Below, piece by piece: positions 11,622-17,692 of a stretch of DNA of 64,000 nucleotides. Origin of the DNA: Escherichia phage pEC-M719-6WT.2; sequence record OQ845958.1, one strand, 5' to 3'. Position 1 is the first letter of the stretch, and each line of letters opens with the position of its first letter. The notes beneath the pieces were generated by a model that was not told where the DNA came from, did no database searches, and was given only the letters and a program-made list of their open reading frames with translations. A program made the position numbers and the translations under genes.

Positions 11622-12800
11622 ATGAGTACAGTTTTTAATACCACTCCGGTGGATGTTTTAGCCGAGCCAATGTTCTTCGGTTCAGGATTGGGAATTGCCC
11701 GTTATGATATCCAGCGTCATAAAGTTTTTGAAGAATTAACAGAAAAGCAATTATCATTCTTCTGGCGTCCAGAGGAAGTAAACCTGATGATGGACGGAGC
11801 CCAATTTAATAAGCTTCCTGAACATCAACAAAATATTTTTACCAACAACCTGAAATACCAGTCGCTTCTGGATAGTATTCAGGGTCGTGCTCCTGCAGCA
11901 GCATTAGCCGCATTAGTTTCTGACCCGAGTCTTGATACCTGGATTCAGACTTGGACATTCAGCGAGACAATTCACTCTCGTTCTTATACGCACATCATGC
12001 GAAATCTCTATACGGACCCGGCGAAGGTATTCGACGAAATCCTGTTAGATGATGCAATCATGAAGCGAGCAGAATCCATCGGTCATTACTATGATGATGT
12101 TCTGAATAAAACTCGTCAATGGCAAAACCAGATTGCTTTTGTTGAACTGGCCAAAGAAACTCCCGAAGCGGACGAACGTTTGGAACGAGCTATCAAACAA
12201 GAATCTATCGCCAAACGAGCATTGATGAAGTCTCTTTATCTCTGCCTGCATGTCATTAATGCCCTGGAAGCCATTCGTTTTTATGTATCTTTTGCATGTA
12301 CTTTCAACTTCCATAAGAACATGGAAATCATGGAAGGCAATGCGAAGATAATGAAGTTCATCGCCCGCGATGAACAGCTCCACCTTAAGGGGACCCAATA
12401 TATTCTTCGTCAGCTGCAGACTGGTGTTGACGGTGACGAATGGGTTAAAATCGCTCGCGAATGTGAAGCAGAAGCCGCAGACATTTTCATGGAAGTTAAT
12501 CGCCAGGAAAAAGAATGGGCCGTGCATCTGTTTAAAGACGGTGGACTCCCTGGGCTGAGCGTCGAGATTCTTAACCGGTTCATCGATTACCTGACGGTTT
12601 CTCGTATGAAGCAATGTGGTCTCCCGTGTGAAATCGTGTTAGAATCTACTAAGCACCCGATTCCATGGATTCGCGAATATCTTAACTCTGATAATGTGCA
12701 ATCAGCACCACAAGAAGTTGAGTTGTCTGCTTACCTGGTAGCCCAAATTGACAATGACGTCGATGAGAACGTTCTTGCTGGTTTCCGTAAATATCTATAA
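11622..12800 (+). CDS. nrdB: aerobic ribonucleotide reductase small subunit, uninterrupted
   Basis: 392 aa contiguous ORF with di-iron/tyrosyl radical signature; follows nrdA after a 38-nt gap. Confidence 0.96.
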   Translation: MSTVFNTTPVDVLAEPMFFGSGLGIARYDIQRHKVFEELTEKQLSFFWRPEEVNLMMDGAQFNKLPEHQQNIFTNNLKYQSLLDSIQGRAPAAALAALVSDPSLDTWIQTWTFSETIHSRSYTHIMRNLYTDPAKVFDEILLDDAIMKRAESIGHYYDDVLNKTRQWQNQIAFVELAKETPEADERLERAIKQESIAKRALMKSLYLCLHVINALEAIRFYVSFACTFNFHKNMEIMEGNAKIMKFIARDEQLHLKGTQYILRQLQTGVDGDEWVKIARECEAEAADIFMEVNRQEKEWAVHLFKDGGLPGLSVEILNRFIDYLTVSRMKQCGLPCEIVLESTKHPIPWIREYLNSDNVQSAPQEVELSAYLVAQIDNDVDENVLAGFRKYL

Positions 12801-12802
12801 GG

Positions 12803-12824
12803 AAAGGGCTTCGGCCCTTTTTGT
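12803..12824 (+). terminator. intrinsic terminator (GGGC-UUCG-GCCC + U-tract)
   Basis: aaagggcttcggccctttttgtc directly after the nrdB stop. Confidence 0.6.
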
Positions 12825-12826
12825 CT

Positions 12827-13237
12827 ATGAAACAAATCGCTGACGAATACAGTTTTATAAAATACGCGGAGTTAGAGTTAGTCGATGGTAAAATCCCTAT
12901 CCTTACTCTCGCAAACAAGAAAAATGTTATCTATGCTATTTCAGTTGATGATGAACTAGTGTATATTGGTAAGACGAACAACCTTAAGAAGCGTATCAAC
13001 TATTACCGGACTGCAATCAACCGAATCGAACAGACGAGTGATTCAAACAAATCCCGGATGATACATGAAGCTTTACAAGAAGGCAAAAAGGTGGTATTCT
13101 ATGCACGACAATGTTTCAATCTGTCAATGACCAATGAACTTGGTACGATGTCAGTCGAAACGATGTCTCTGGAAGAGCCGATGTTCATCAAGCTTTTTAA
13201 TCCCCCGTGGAATTACCAACATAAGGTGAAGAAATGA
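12827..13237 (+). CDS. denA: endonuclease II (GIY-YIG family)
   Basis: 136 aa from ATG at 12827 (ORF track starts 6 nt earlier); VIYAI ... VYIGKTNNLKKRINYYR and FNPPWN match T4 EndoII from memory. Confidence 0.9.
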   Translation: MKQIADEYSFIKYAELELVDGKIPILTLANKKNVIYAISVDDELVYIGKTNNLKKRINYYRTAINRIEQTSDSNKSRMIHEALQEGKKVVFYARQCFNLSMTNELGTMSVETMSLEEPMFIKLFNPPWNYQHKVKK

Positions 13238-14370
13238 TTGAATTATATGATAACTTAATGAAGCTTTGCACCGAATCCGATAAAGGTAAGTTTTTCTATA
13301 CGGATTTTGTTTCTCCATTTGAAACTAAGTTCCGCATCTTTAGCTATAACTATGCTTCCTATAGTGATTGGCTCCTTGATGATGCGCTGGAGTGCCGTGG
13401 CATTATGTTTGAAATGGATGACAATGGTCCAGTTCGCATTGCTGCTCGCCCTATGGAAAAATTCTTTAATCTGGGTGAGAATCCAATGACCATGGACCTT
13501 AACCTTGATAAGGTTGTCCTGGTTACTGCAAAAGCTGATGGTAGCTTGGTTTCTACTTATATGGACCAGACTAATATCGCCTTTAAATCAAAGGGGTCAA
13601 TCAAAAGCTCCCAAGCAGCTGAATCCTTGCAGGTGTTTAAACAAGAACATCGCAGTGCATTCAGGGCTCGTGTGACTGAAATCACTGAAGCTGGTTATAC
13701 ATGCAACATGGAATATGTTGCACCGACCAACCGCATTGTTTTGCCTTACCAGGAACGTGACCTTATTTTACTGAACGTTCGTCATAATGAAACTGGTGAA
13801 TATATTCCTTATCAGGAGCTGTTCAAAGATGCAGCGCTTCGTCCTTTCCTGGTTGAAGCATATGACCCGGCAACCATTGAGAATGTTCGCGGTATGAAAG
13901 AGATTGAAGGCTTCGTCTATGAGATGGCTAACGGTCAGAAGTTCAAGATGAAAACAGAATGGTATTGTGCTCTGCATCATACTAAAGACTCCATTAATAA
14001 TAATGAGCGACTGTTTGAAGTTGTTGTTGCTGGCGGCGCGGATGATGTTATTGCCATGTTTACTGGCGATACTTATGCTCGTGAAAAAGTTACTGCCTTT
14101 ACTGCAACACATCTGGATTATCTGTCCAACACTCTTGGACTGTTGCTTGATGCACAAAAACAGTTAGCAGGAAAAGACCGTCGCGAGTTTGCGATTAAAG
14201 GTCAAGAGTTATGTAAACCATATCCGGGATTGTTCTCCGTATTAATGAACACCTATCAACGCCCACAGGAAACTGAACAAACGATTGCTCAAATCAATAA
14301 AGTTTTCCTTAAAAATCATAAACTTTACATTCCGTTAGACTACCAGGCGGAAGTAATCCTTCCTGAATAA
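13234..14370 (+). CDS. rnlA: RNA ligase 1
   Basis: 378 aa; FSYNYASYSDWLLDDALECRGIMFE, EDGSLVSTY, FVAPTNRIV match T4 Rnl1 (gene 63) from memory. Confidence 0.9.
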   Translation: MIELYDNLMKLCTESDKGKFFYTDFVSPFETKFRIFSYNYASYSDWLLDDALECRGIMFEMDDNGPVRIAARPMEKFFNLGENPMTMDLNLDKVVLVTAKADGSLVSTYMDQTNIAFKSKGSIKSSQAAESLQVFKQEHRSAFRARVTEITEAGYTCNMEYVAPTNRIVLPYQERDLILLNVRHNETGEYIPYQELFKDAALRPFLVEAYDPATIENVRGMKEIEGFVYEMANGQKFKMKTEWYCALHHTKDSINNNERLFEVVVAGGADDVIAMFTGDTYAREKVTAFTATHLDYLSNTLGLLLDAQKQLAGKDRREFAIKGQELCKPYPGLFSVLMNTYQRPQETEQTIAQINKVFLKNHKLYIPLDYQAEVILPE

Positions 14371-14373
14371 TAA

Positions 14374-14412
14374 AAAAGGGGTGTACAAGCCCCTTCTTTC
14401 TATACATAATGG
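14374..14412 (+). promoter_or_regulatory. terminator hairpin fused to early promoter (-35 in hairpin loop)
   Basis: aaggggTGTACAAgcccctt then ctttctatacataat; stem GGGG/CCCC encloses the -35-like TGTACAA, CATAAT about 17 nt later. Confidence 0.5.
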
Positions 14413-14441
14413 TTCCATCAACTACTGATGAGGACCAAAAC

Positions 14442-14675
14442 ATGTTAAACTTAATTACAAATGACAGAGTTACAAAGGCATATGGTGACAGAAATGATGG
14501 AATCTATGTCTATAAGGGAGACCGCCGGATTGGTTTCATTACTGACCTAAAGGCCAAATTGTTAAAAGAACTGAAAGCTCAAACAAGTGATTCTGGGTTT
14601 AGAGCAAGAGCCAAAAAGAAAGATGAGCGCCTGGGTGCCAACTCTTTTGGTCCCCGGGGTTACAACCGCTACTAA
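14442..14675 (+). CDS. hypothetical protein; paralog of the N-terminal domain of the next gene
   Basis: 77 aa from internal ATG; YGDRNDGIYVYKGDRRIGFITDLKAKL parallels YGDRHDGIYVYKGTKKIGLMTDLRKKL in ORF 14689-15192. Confidence 0.5.
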   Translation: MLNLITNDRVTKAYGDRNDGIYVYKGDRRIGFITDLKAKLLKELKAQTSDSGFRARAKKKDERLGANSFGPRGYNRY

Positions 14676-14688
14676 TGAGGAAAATATT

Positions 14689-15192
14689 ATGGATATGCAA
14701 CTGATTTCAAACGAAATGATTGTCAATGAATATGGTGACCGCCATGACGGAATTTATGTCTATAAAGGGACCAAGAAAATTGGTCTCATGACTGACCTGC
14801 GGAAAAAACTCGCCTCCAATAAAAAGTTGAAGGCGAAACAAAAAGAATATCGTGATAAAAAATCAGAAGAGCGGAAAGAAGCACTGCATGAATCTGTTCC
14901 TGAAATGGTTGACTTCTTAAAGAACCATTTGGTTAAATATGATGCAGAAGTGTTCATTAACCAGACCCAACCTAATGTACATATCAATGGATGTGTTTGT
15001 TATGTTGTGGTTGAACCCCTGACACTTCAACACCGCCTGGGGATTAAACACCCAGTGTTAACCCAGGATGATATGGCGGATGAAGTTGGTAATCAGTTCC
15101 GCATTTCAGCGTCTGACAGTACAAATCACATCCTCCTGAATGGTTTATCCCAGGATGATATTGTTGAGGTAATCATCAAGTTATGCAAATAA
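14689..15192 (+). CDS. alc: candidate Alc-like protein (host transcription shutoff), by position and length only
   Basis: 167 aa from internal ATG with GAGGAAAATATT ribosome-binding site; lies between rnlA and the spanin pair where T4 has alc. No sequence memory of T4 Alc to confirm. Confidence 0.4.
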   Translation: MDMQLISNEMIVNEYGDRHDGIYVYKGTKKIGLMTDLRKKLASNKKLKAKQKEYRDKKSEERKEALHESVPEMVDFLKNHLVKYDAEVFINQTQPNVHINGCVCYVVVEPLTLQHRLGIKHPVLTQDDMADEVGNQFRISASDSTNHILLNGLSQDDIVEVIIKLCK

Positions 15193-15536
15193 GTAATCTC
15201 ACTGCAGGGCTTATGCTAGCCCTGGTAGTAACTGCTGGTAGTGGTTTCTATCTAAAAGCAAAAGTAGATAATCTCAAGACGGCGGTGGCGGAAGTCACCA
15301 AAGTTGCAGAAGATAACGCGAAAAATCTGCAATCAGTAAAAGACCAGATTAATCAAATTAATCTCCTTGACCAGGAGCGCCAGGAATATGTTGAACTTCT
15401 GCAGAAGGAAAATGATAAACTCCGCGCAGATGCAAAACGTACTAAGGTTGTGGCAGCGAAGCCTAAATTAGTTGAAAAACAGATTAATCAGTCTTTTGAT
15501 AAGTTTGCCCAGGACTTCCAGGAGCTCACCAAATGA
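15183..15536 (+). CDS. i-spanin (Rz-like; T4 pseT.3 equivalent)
   Basis: 117 aa; N-terminal transmembrane segment (LMLALVVTAGSGF) followed by charged coiled-coil; overlaps the next ORF. Confidence 0.7.
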   Translation: MQISNLTAGLMLALVVTAGSGFYLKAKVDNLKTAVAEVTKVAEDNAKNLQSVKDQINQINLLDQERQEYVELLQKENDKLRADAKRTKVVAAKPKLVEKQINQSFDKFAQDFQELTK

Positions 15537-15823
15537 TGAAATCTATCATGGCAGTATGTTTGGCTATTGGACTCGTTTCATGCGCCCAGAAGCCCGTTGT
15601 GGAGCCCACAATCCAAGTTCATCCTAATTGGCCTGTTGCATTGGCTGATTACAAACAGCAATGGGAAGTTAAGGTAATTGAGGGTCAAGCCTGGGTTGGT
15701 ATGCCTTTTGAAGCATCGCAAGAATTCCGGATTTGGATGAATGATGTAAAAAGATATGTACATGACCAAAAAGGTATGTTATGTTATTATCGTTCTGAAC
15801 TAAAAGAAGAACGTTGCAAATGA
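15533..15823 (+). CDS. o-spanin lipoprotein (Rz1-like; T4 pseT.2 equivalent)
   Basis: 96 aa; signal peptide with lipobox LVSC; start overlaps i-spanin stop. Confidence 0.7.
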   Translation: MMKSIMAVCLAIGLVSCAQKPVVEPTIQVHPNWPVALADYKQQWEVKVIEGQAWVGMPFEASQEFRIWMNDVKRYVHDQKGMLCYYRSELKEERCK

Positions 15824-15924: not shown

Positions 15925-15958
15925 TAGTGTACAAACTCATGGGAGCAGAGTATAATGC
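15925..15958 (+). promoter_or_regulatory. early promoter cassette (GTGTACAA ... TATAAT flanked by short inverted repeat)
   Basis: aaagtagtgtacaa ... GGAGCAgagTATAATgcTCCT; 6-bp inverted repeat brackets the -10. Confidence 0.5.
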
Positions 15959-15984
15959 TCCTACGGATTATAAAATTTGAGGAA

Positions 15985-16469
15985 ATGACTATGACTTTAC
16001 GTGATAACAGTTTTGTGGCTAAGCCTGAATACATTTCAAGTATTAAATCTCCTGTATTACAAAAGCTCTTAAAATTAGGGTCCTGTGCAAGTACACCAAT
16101 TGAAAAGAAGGCAACTTTCGATTTTGCTTGGGCTATTGTGGACGGTATTGATGTAGTAAGACAGGTAACTTTTTATGCTCCTGGTGCTATTGAGCCTTCC
16201 CAAATTATTAACCTGGATGGAAGTAATTATATTACTATCCAACAGTGGTATCGTATGATGCGACCTGTTTGGGAATACCCAGAATTTATTGAAGAATACA
16301 ATGAAAAAGAACGTATTCGTGAACTGGTAAAAAGTTTTGAATATGCGGCTAAACGCCATGGTCAAATGCAAGCTGCCGCTACGCTTGGTGATGTTTCTGA
16401 AAGCGCGGCTTATGAAACTGGTAAAATCCTTAAAACTTGTCGCGAAGAACTTTATAAGGAGCTTGGTGT

Positions 16470-16473
<4 letters not shown>
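15985..16473 (+). CDS. hypothetical protein (internal start of ORF-track 15955-16473)
   Basis: ATG preceded by GAGGAAATGA; 162 aa. Confidence 0.45.

Positions 16474-17691
<1,218 letters not shown>

Positions 17692-17692
<1 letters not shown>

Follow-up and report, generated by a model that had tools for sequence, protein, structure and literature searches.

The Alc protein of bacteriophage T4 is a classic factor that has remained mechanistically unsolved: under its action, E. coli RNA polymerase terminates only on DNA with unmodified cytosine. This termination on dC-DNA depends on residues R368 and P372 of the beta subunit of RNA polymerase (PMC2988021, PMC2939025), and the mechanism of Alc is stated in reviews to be unknown (PMC2988021). 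Here we consider a short gene, alcB, which encodes a relative of the N-terminal part of Alc and precedes alc itself in Escherichia phage pEC-M719-6WT.2; the 64,000-nucleotide (nt) stretch of DNA that was analyzed (record OQ845958.1) is referred to below as the window. The existence of this gene is not new: SP18 "alcb" (ADO19581), VR7ORF243c (ADR32618) and PHROG 17715 ("inhibitor of host transcription") are the same gene, with products that are 95-100% identical, and the SP18 record (GQ981382) already carries the note "similar to N-terminal region of bacteriophage JS98 Alc". The functional label attached to PHROG 17715 and used in the databases is a putative one, transferred from Alc, and a literature search for studies of alcb or VR7 gp243 yielded no paper. 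What is added here is the evidence of purifying selection, the orthologs in two uncultured lineages, a tail motif, the layout of the operon, and a structural reading of the two proteins.

The alignments of proteins and DNA show that alcB goes back to an old tandem duplication, in which the leader of alc and roughly the first 70 codons of the gene were copied. The two open reading frames (ORFs) are located on the plus strand at 14442-14675 (alcB, 77 amino acids) and 14689-15192 (alc, 167 amino acids), exactly where a first-pass annotation made from the sequence had placed them, and the peptides quoted in that annotation are exact as well. Its unconfirmed guess that the downstream gene is alc turned out to be right: the 167-aa protein matches the Pfam family PF17527 (ALC) with residues 1-166 on profile positions 1-176 of 177 (E=6.5e-49, 166.4 bits at a cut-off of 25), matches phrog_1253 with E=1.6e-73, and is encoded between rnlA and pseT.3, as in T4-type phages. 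Hence, this protein is Alc, a full-length member of the family. The claim of paralogy and tandem arrangement is likewise upheld, both by formal alignment of the products and by a repeat in the DNA. In the BLASTP alignment, the short product and Alc share 31 of 64 residues (48%, E=5e-17), with the homology covering residues 1 to about 62 of Alc. Copy A of the DNA repeat (14411-14548, plus strand) consists of the leader with the Shine-Dalgarno sequence and the codons for the AlcB head, whereas copy B (14658-14798, plus strand), which starts 247 nt further on, consists of the alc leader and the codons for the Alc head and, in addition, encodes the last five residues of AlcB (GYNRY) and its stop codon. 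The two copies are 69% identical over 143 columns, and their alignment scores 97, as compared to 23 +/- 3 (maximum 34) in 200 shuffles. Each copy of the repeat begins about 31 nt before the respective ATG and contains ...CTACTrATGAGGA...; the leader and the Shine-Dalgarno sequence were, accordingly, part of the duplicated unit. The match of AlcB to PF17527 (41 bits at the cut-off of 25, E=2.1e-10) is confined to profile positions 3-62, the residues of the C-terminal domain that would complete the Alc architecture are missing, and no remnant of this domain was found in any frame of 14560-14700; accordingly, AlcB is a paralog of the Alc head and not an Alc. To phrog_17715, AlcB aligns with residues 1-77 on profile positions 1-77 of 77 (E=5.7e-53); NCBIfam has no model for either Alc or the short protein.

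When considering an ORF of this size, a reality check is important: is it a gene at all? We compared 18 genomes, namely, the window and 17 relatives, and found that the short ORF and alc are both intact in all of them. The ratio of nonsynonymous to synonymous substitutions (dN/dS, Nei-Gojobori) in the short ORF is 0.115, with 16 of the 22 segregating sites at codon position 3, which is in the same range as the values for its neighbors (0.109 for alc, 0.081 for rnlA, and 0.10-0.14 for the spanins). In the part of AlcB that has no homology to Alc (codons 45-77), dN/dS is as low as 0.037, and a Pro-Arg pair in this tail is encoded by CCC-CGG in some genomes and by CCT-AGA in others, a doubly synonymous swap. 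As read from the sequence, a Shine-Dalgarno motif GAGGA (14430-14434, plus strand) is located 7 nt before the ATG at 14442; it is present in 17 of the 18 genomes, with GCGGA in EAWsc9. In all 15 GenBank records whose annotation was checked, a coding sequence is called at this place. Taken together, the pattern of substitutions and the conservation of the ORF show it to be a genuine protein-coding gene under purifying selection; along with the conserved signals for translation and transcription, this contradicts the possibility, raised in the first-pass annotation, of an unexpressed fragment.

Two alternative readings of the ORF boundaries were rejected. An 88-aa form starting from the ATG at 14409 has no Shine-Dalgarno sequence, and 8 of the 18 genomes contain an in-frame TAA two codons before the ATG at 14442, so that the start is at 14442 and not at 14409. 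A programmed +1 frameshift at CCC-CGG, which would fuse the short ORF to alc, is incompatible with the presence of CCT-AGA at this site in nine of the 18 genomes. The frame of alc is open for 39 codons upstream of its start, and some GenBank records call alc as a protein of 189-201 aa; such calls are gene-finder artefacts. They are found in P8, DCP80 and CJ20, where alc is called from upstream in-frame starts and overlaps the short ORF. Other irregularities of annotation include the label "PRC domain-containing protein" given to the short ORF of EAWsc9 and the product names in phage 212, which are shifted by one gene.

The distribution of alcB was searched in 50,697 GenBank phage records and, by a profile search, in 1.84 billion representative proteins. 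Among the GenBank records, the full-length short paralog is present only in 33 of the Gaprivervirus type, each of which has two Alc-like places. These 33 records (VR7, VR20, VR25, VR26, SP18, RZ, P8, UPEC01/07 and their relatives) are 91-98.6% identical to the window over 13800-15600; of the taxonomy lines checked, most read Gaprivervirus, and P8 and phage 212 have no such line. In T2 and in JS98, the latter a member of Dhakavirus, the genus cited as the closest in the SP18 and VR7 records, rnlA is followed straight by alc, with no short ORF. The representative proteins contained only 34 Alc-family clusters, one of which led to a contig of an uncultured lineage where rnlA is followed by a 78-aa ORF (P0043) and this, in turn, by alc, whose 167-aa product shares 77% identity with Alc of the window; the product of the 78-aa ORF aligns with the AlcB of the window over its full length without gaps, at 49% identity (E=2e-27). 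A third lineage, also uncultured (contigs L023 and L024), has a 77-aa ORF at the same place between rnlA and alc and an Alc that is 75% identical to that of the window. Over the full length, the AlcB orthologs of contigs L021 and L023/L024 are 48-50% identical to the window protein. In two other lineages, with an Alc that is 60-63% identical to that of the window, the short ORF is absent. These additional lineages came only from the search of representative proteins and contig look-ups; scans of the IMG/VR and JGI metagenomes with an alignment of the short ORF returned only the Gaprivervirus copies and ordinary Alc N-termini. Thus, the short ORF is present in relatives of the window, a point that the first-pass annotation had singled out for checking, namely, in the 33 GenBank records and the two uncultured lineages.

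Between the lineages, the proportion of synonymous differences (pS) in the short ORF is 0.72-0.82, that is, saturated, and the proportion of nonsynonymous differences (pN) is 0.29-0.41. Given that the orthologs occupy the same place despite the saturation of synonymous sites, the paralog arose once, before the three lineages split, and was kept thereafter. A recent duplication in situ was rejected because the AlcB head is not more similar to the neighboring Alc (52%) than to the Alc proteins from other genera (41-59%) and because divergent lineages possess orthologs. Overall, the short protein is 31-52% identical to the neighboring Alc and 41-59% identical to Alc of other genera. Therefore, of the "partial duplication" and "stand-alone copy of one domain" proposed in the first-pass annotation, the duplication of the Alc N-terminus stands but the idea of a simple copy has to be amended, inasmuch as alcB is old, has retained only 31-52% identity, and has acquired a conserved tail of its own.

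Three further proteins that looked like stand-alone Alc heads were discarded. P0053 (61 aa) is the first half of an alc that is split into ORFs of 61 and 111 aa. P0055 (L040:198-725) and P0056 were found on a contig with alternative frames and a coverage of 1.2x, so that this sequence is unreliable; none of the three was used as evidence. P0055 itself has 175 aa, with an Alc-like head and the start of the helix followed by an unrelated low-complexity C-terminus, and is encoded upstream of dCMP deaminase; P0056 is its variant in an alternative frame. In a metagenomic T4-like contig (L022:2894-3431), the interval between rnlA and the spanins contains an alc divided into two ORFs, one for the head (61 aa) and one for the C-terminal part (111 aa); this is either a natural split or an assembly frameshift error.

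The AlphaFold2 models suggest which parts of Alc are kept in AlcB. The model of Alc has a predicted local distance difference test (pLDDT) score of 92 and consists of a small head (residues 1-33) formed by a helix (8-15) and a hairpin (23-33), a single 47-residue helix (34-80) that is very rich in Lys, Glu and Arg but devoid of a heptad pattern, and, at the C-terminus, an alpha/beta domain (87-166). Searches of the PDB with the Alc sequence and with the Alc profile gave nothing significant; no structure of Alc has been solved, and the best PDB match to the modeled C-terminal domain is the DNA-binding domain of MotA. In T4 MotA, the N-terminal domain binds sigma70, and the C-terminal "double wing" domain binds DNA. 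Most of the family-invariant residues of Alc are located in this C-terminal alpha/beta domain (motifs TQPNV...HRLGI...DDIVE). In the model of AlcB, the head spans residues 1-32 (helix 7-14, hairpin 22-32), and residues from about 33 to 45 begin a helix; the pLDDT is about 90 over residues 11-40, falls after residue 45 or so, and is about 50 in the tail. The structure prediction for both proteins, called for in the first-pass annotation, thus gives the same head, with AlcB and Alc beginning with the same helix-hairpin-helix. The residues of the head that do not vary across the Alc family (I6, G16, D20, G21, I22 and G32), as well as the near-invariant D36 and L37, are all present in AlcB of the window and its Gaprivervirus orthologs; the metagenomic ortholog from L024 has E at the position of G21.

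Beyond approximately residue 45, AlcB has neither the spacer helix nor any part of the C-terminal alpha/beta domain. Instead, residues from about 46 to 77 form a family-specific basic tail with Gly, Pro and aromatic residues that has no counterpart in Alc, and the isoelectric point (pI) of the protein is 10.1, as compared to 6.65 for Alc. The motif GF..[RK]..R.G.NSFGP...N[KR][FY]-COOH is common to the three lineages, with 10 tail positions invariant (G52, F53, R63, G65, N67, S68, F69, G70, P71 and N75). According to the model, the tail is probably disordered, and it is unlikely to be helical, being Gly- and Pro-rich in the other two lineages. The possibility that the tail is a remnant of the Alc C-terminus was considered and rejected: MAFFT did set NSFGP under NQTQP of Alc, but the two motifs agree in nothing except N and P, and past the charged helix, none of the frames of 14560-14700 aligns with Alc (scores 21-30).

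Alc itself varies within Gaprivervirus (loci L001-L017), where two alleles of its head, MDMQ..NEY..TKKIGLM and MNMQ..DVY..SKNVGFL, are observed. The synonymous divergence of alc is 0.32 in codons 1-60 (14689-14868) and 0.065 in codons 61-167 (14869-15189), a pattern indicative of a recombination mosaic, the boundary of which would lie about halfway along the long helix.

The arrangement of expression signals is compatible with joint production of the two proteins. By position and consensus, a site resembling T4 early promoters, (G)TGTACA-17 nt-CATAAT (14382-14410, plus strand), begins 60 nt before the ATG of the short ORF. In T2, alc is preceded, at a distance of 60 nt, by the start of a textbook T4 early promoter, GTTTACA-17-TATAGT, and in JS98, TTTACA-16-TAGTAT is found 64 nt before alc. 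Contigs L021, L023 and L024 contain an element of the type GTTTAC(A/T)-16/17-(T/C)A..AT 56-60 nt before the short ORF, which is separated from alc by coding sequence only. The alc gene has its own Shine-Dalgarno sequence GAGGA (14677-14681, plus strand), located 7 nt before the ATG at 14689 and 1 nt past the TAA of the short ORF (14673-14675); in the VR7 group, L021 and L023, the stop codon TGA of the short ORF overlaps the Shine-Dalgarno sequence of alc (TGAGGA), so that in every lineage the stop either abuts (1 nt) or overlaps GAGGA. The simplest reading of these signals is that alcB and alc make up an early bicistron, with alcB first and with possible translational coupling, which would be transcribed from the same early promoter that, in T2 and JS98, would serve alc directly. 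Given the shared early promoter-like site and the apposition of the stop codon and the Shine-Dalgarno sequence, AlcB and Alc are probably made together early in infection. A literature search for transcriptome or proteome data on Gaprivervirus found none. Within rnlA, inspection by eye showed a candidate MotA box of a middle promoter (TTGCTTGA, around 14143) but no suitable -10 element. The -35 element of the promoter-like site overlaps the terminator-like hairpin of rnlA (14376-14410 for both taken together), and the T-to-G change that weakens the -35 of the window (GTGTACA versus GTTTACA) falls in the hairpin loop.

How could an Alc head with a different tail function next to Alc? We propose, with somewhat less than even confidence, that AlcB docks where the Alc head binds, most plausibly on RNA polymerase, acts via its tail, and modulates the Alc-dependent shut-off. 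In this scenario, Alc would consist of two modules, of which the C-terminal domain, similar to the DNA-binding domain of MotA, would sense cytosine in DNA, and the head would anchor Alc to a partner, most likely the RNA polymerase of the host in the vicinity of beta R368/P372. Using the same head, AlcB would bind to the same site, would exert its effect there through its own tail, and would tune the shut-off of host transcription by Alc; that it would also compete with Alc would be a side effect and not its sole purpose.

A regulator or decoy function of AlcB, as suggested in the first-pass annotation, is plausible. In the pure form of this idea, AlcB would be an antagonist that only occupies the docking site of Alc, or Alc itself, and limits the activity of Alc, one possible rationale being that phage DNA with a cytosine modification different from that of T4 has to be spared. 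We consider this pure form unlikely. AlcB does have the head and lacks the C-terminal domain, and it is encoded together with Alc. The cytosine chemistry of these phages is in keeping with a decoy as well: in the annotation of VR7 (HM563683, 14000-40000), gene 42, beta-gt and alpha-gt are all missing from the syntenic sites, which are located between uvsX and gene 43 and between genes 47 and 55, and no cytosine-modifying enzyme is evident, yet the dCTPase gp56 is present. More generally, according to two comparative papers, the hydroxymethylcytosine (hmC) pathway is absent from Gaprivervirus, with alc, denA, denB and dCTPase kept (PMC8056088, PMC12115623), and the cytosines of VR7 DNA are reported to be modified yet unglycosylated (PMC6326788). 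However, a passive decoy needs no tail motif that is invariant across lineages with saturated synonymous sites; the chief objection to such a decoy is this conserved tail, which suggests that AlcB is more than that. Furthermore, an inhibitor produced from the same promoter at the same time as its target would provide no temporal control, the unglucosylated hmC DNA of T4 is already resistant to Alc, and the argument from DNA chemistry rests on one cultured lineage.

The same chemistry, with its context in that single lineage, allows a more specific version, to which we assign only a slim chance, namely, that AlcB is an attenuator or specificity factor of Alc that co-evolved with the unusual cytosine chemistry of a genus from which gene 42 and both glucosyltransferases have been lost at their T4 positions. 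If this were the case, AlcB would let the phage keep a cytosine-sensing terminator without silencing its own genes, and, as a side result, the natural separation of the head from the C-terminal domain would identify the former as the module that anchors Alc to RNA polymerase and the latter, the MotA-like one, as the sensor of cytosine. This would settle the question of how Alc reads DNA modification, which has been open since 1993. In any case, alcB marks a clade that apparently uses a cytosine chemistry different from that of T4 and, as such, may bear on the retuning of shut-off factors upon changes in DNA modification.

As unlikely as the pure decoy is an unrelated new function, for which the head would have been turned into a scaffold, whereas the basic tail of the protein (pI 10.1) would bind nucleic acid or another host protein; AlcB might then disrupt the nucleoid or bind RNA, without involvement of Alc or RNA polymerase. 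The basic, Gly/Pro-rich, aromatic tail with its conserved NSFGP would suit such a function, and AlcB diverges between the lineages faster than Alc (about 49% versus 75-77% identity). What speaks most against this possibility is that the head is invariant and that the gene is strictly linked to alc: the family-invariant head residues are kept, with the exception of the E at the G21 position in L024, which favors continued use of the ancestral contact, and the linkage to alc in all three lineages favors a related role. Somewhat less likely still is the view that the head is an oligomerization element, such that AlcB and Alc would form a hetero-oligomer with altered valency or specificity. The adjacent and probably translationally coupled genes are typical of subunits of one complex, and the head invariants are kept, but there is no sign that Alc oligomerizes, the charged ER/K-like helix lacks a heptad pattern, and the Alc head alleles of Gaprivervirus combine freely with AlcB variants, without obvious co-variation. 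Finally, that alcB is a non-functional remnant of the duplication or a gene-caller artefact has next to no probability: the ORF is indeed short, its last five codons are supplied by the alc leader, and the metagenomic variant P0002 is frameshifted in the tail, but against this stand the low dN/dS of the whole gene and still lower value for the tail, its integrity in 18 of 18 genomes, the full-length matches in 33 GenBank records with coding sequences called in all 15 that were checked, the retention in three lineages with saturated synonymous divergence, and the conserved Shine-Dalgarno sequence.

The locus as a whole is syntenic with the nrdB-pseT segment of T4, and the flanks of alc follow the T4 order. 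Upstream of the short ORF are nrdB (11622-12800), a denA-type GIY-YIG endonuclease gene (12821-13237), and, directly adjacent, rnlA (13234-14370). A consensus scan found just past the rnlA stop codon the terminator-like hairpin (14376-14395, plus strand), which has 7 pairs, including 4 G-C pairs, and precedes CTTTCT; it is kept in all 18 genomes. The Rfam scan of the whole window gave no match. Downstream of alc, the spanin genes pseT.3/pseT.2 are followed by pseT (16787-17692). The interval from the spanins to pseT (15955-16790) contains two ORFs of unknown function, of 172 aa (phrog_4482) and 106 aa (phrog_2364); in SP18, a single ORF of 118 aa is annotated there, so this interval is variable within the genus. 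In DCP80 (PQ671644, 4393-7417), the similarity to the window ends just past alc, and no pseT.3/pseT.2 pair was found there; the genome of DCP80 is only 141 kb, and these observations suggest a deletion, rearrangement or misassembly.

The main value of alcB is as a handle on the unsolved mechanism of Alc. A natural, selected, stand-alone Alc head is a ready reagent for assigning the binding of RNA polymerase and the reading of DNA to the two halves of Alc, and the AlphaFold2 models with the match to the MotA domain give this question a concrete prediction. There is a practical aspect as well, in that Gaprivervirus phages have been proposed for therapy and the annotation of alcB in their genomes is inconsistent.

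With respect to known systems, AlcB is most similar to T4 Alc (PF17527, PHROG 1253), the dC-DNA-specific termination factor, with which it shares the N-terminal 45-60 residues or so, including the head, and also the leader, the Shine-Dalgarno sequence, and the genomic position; it differs from Alc by the lack of the spacer helix past residue 45 or thereabouts and of the C-terminal domain, and by the possession of an unrelated conserved basic tail. In its general design, AlcB resembles microProteins, such as Id and LITTLE ZIPPER, which are small paralogs with a single domain that act by titrating their multi-domain parents or the partners of these: AlcB, too, is a truncated paralog that has the parental head and lacks the effector domain. 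Unlike AlcB, which is known from sequence and model and whose added tail suggests a function of its own, these proteins are eukaryotic, and their heterodimerization has been demonstrated. The RNA-polymerase binders AsiA of T4, Gp2 of T7 and P7 of Xp10 have no relation to AlcB in sequence or fold, and for AlcB we only infer the binding to RNA polymerase; nevertheless, all of them belong to the same size class (60-90 aa), and alcB, like the genes for these proteins, would be an early gene in the context of host takeover.
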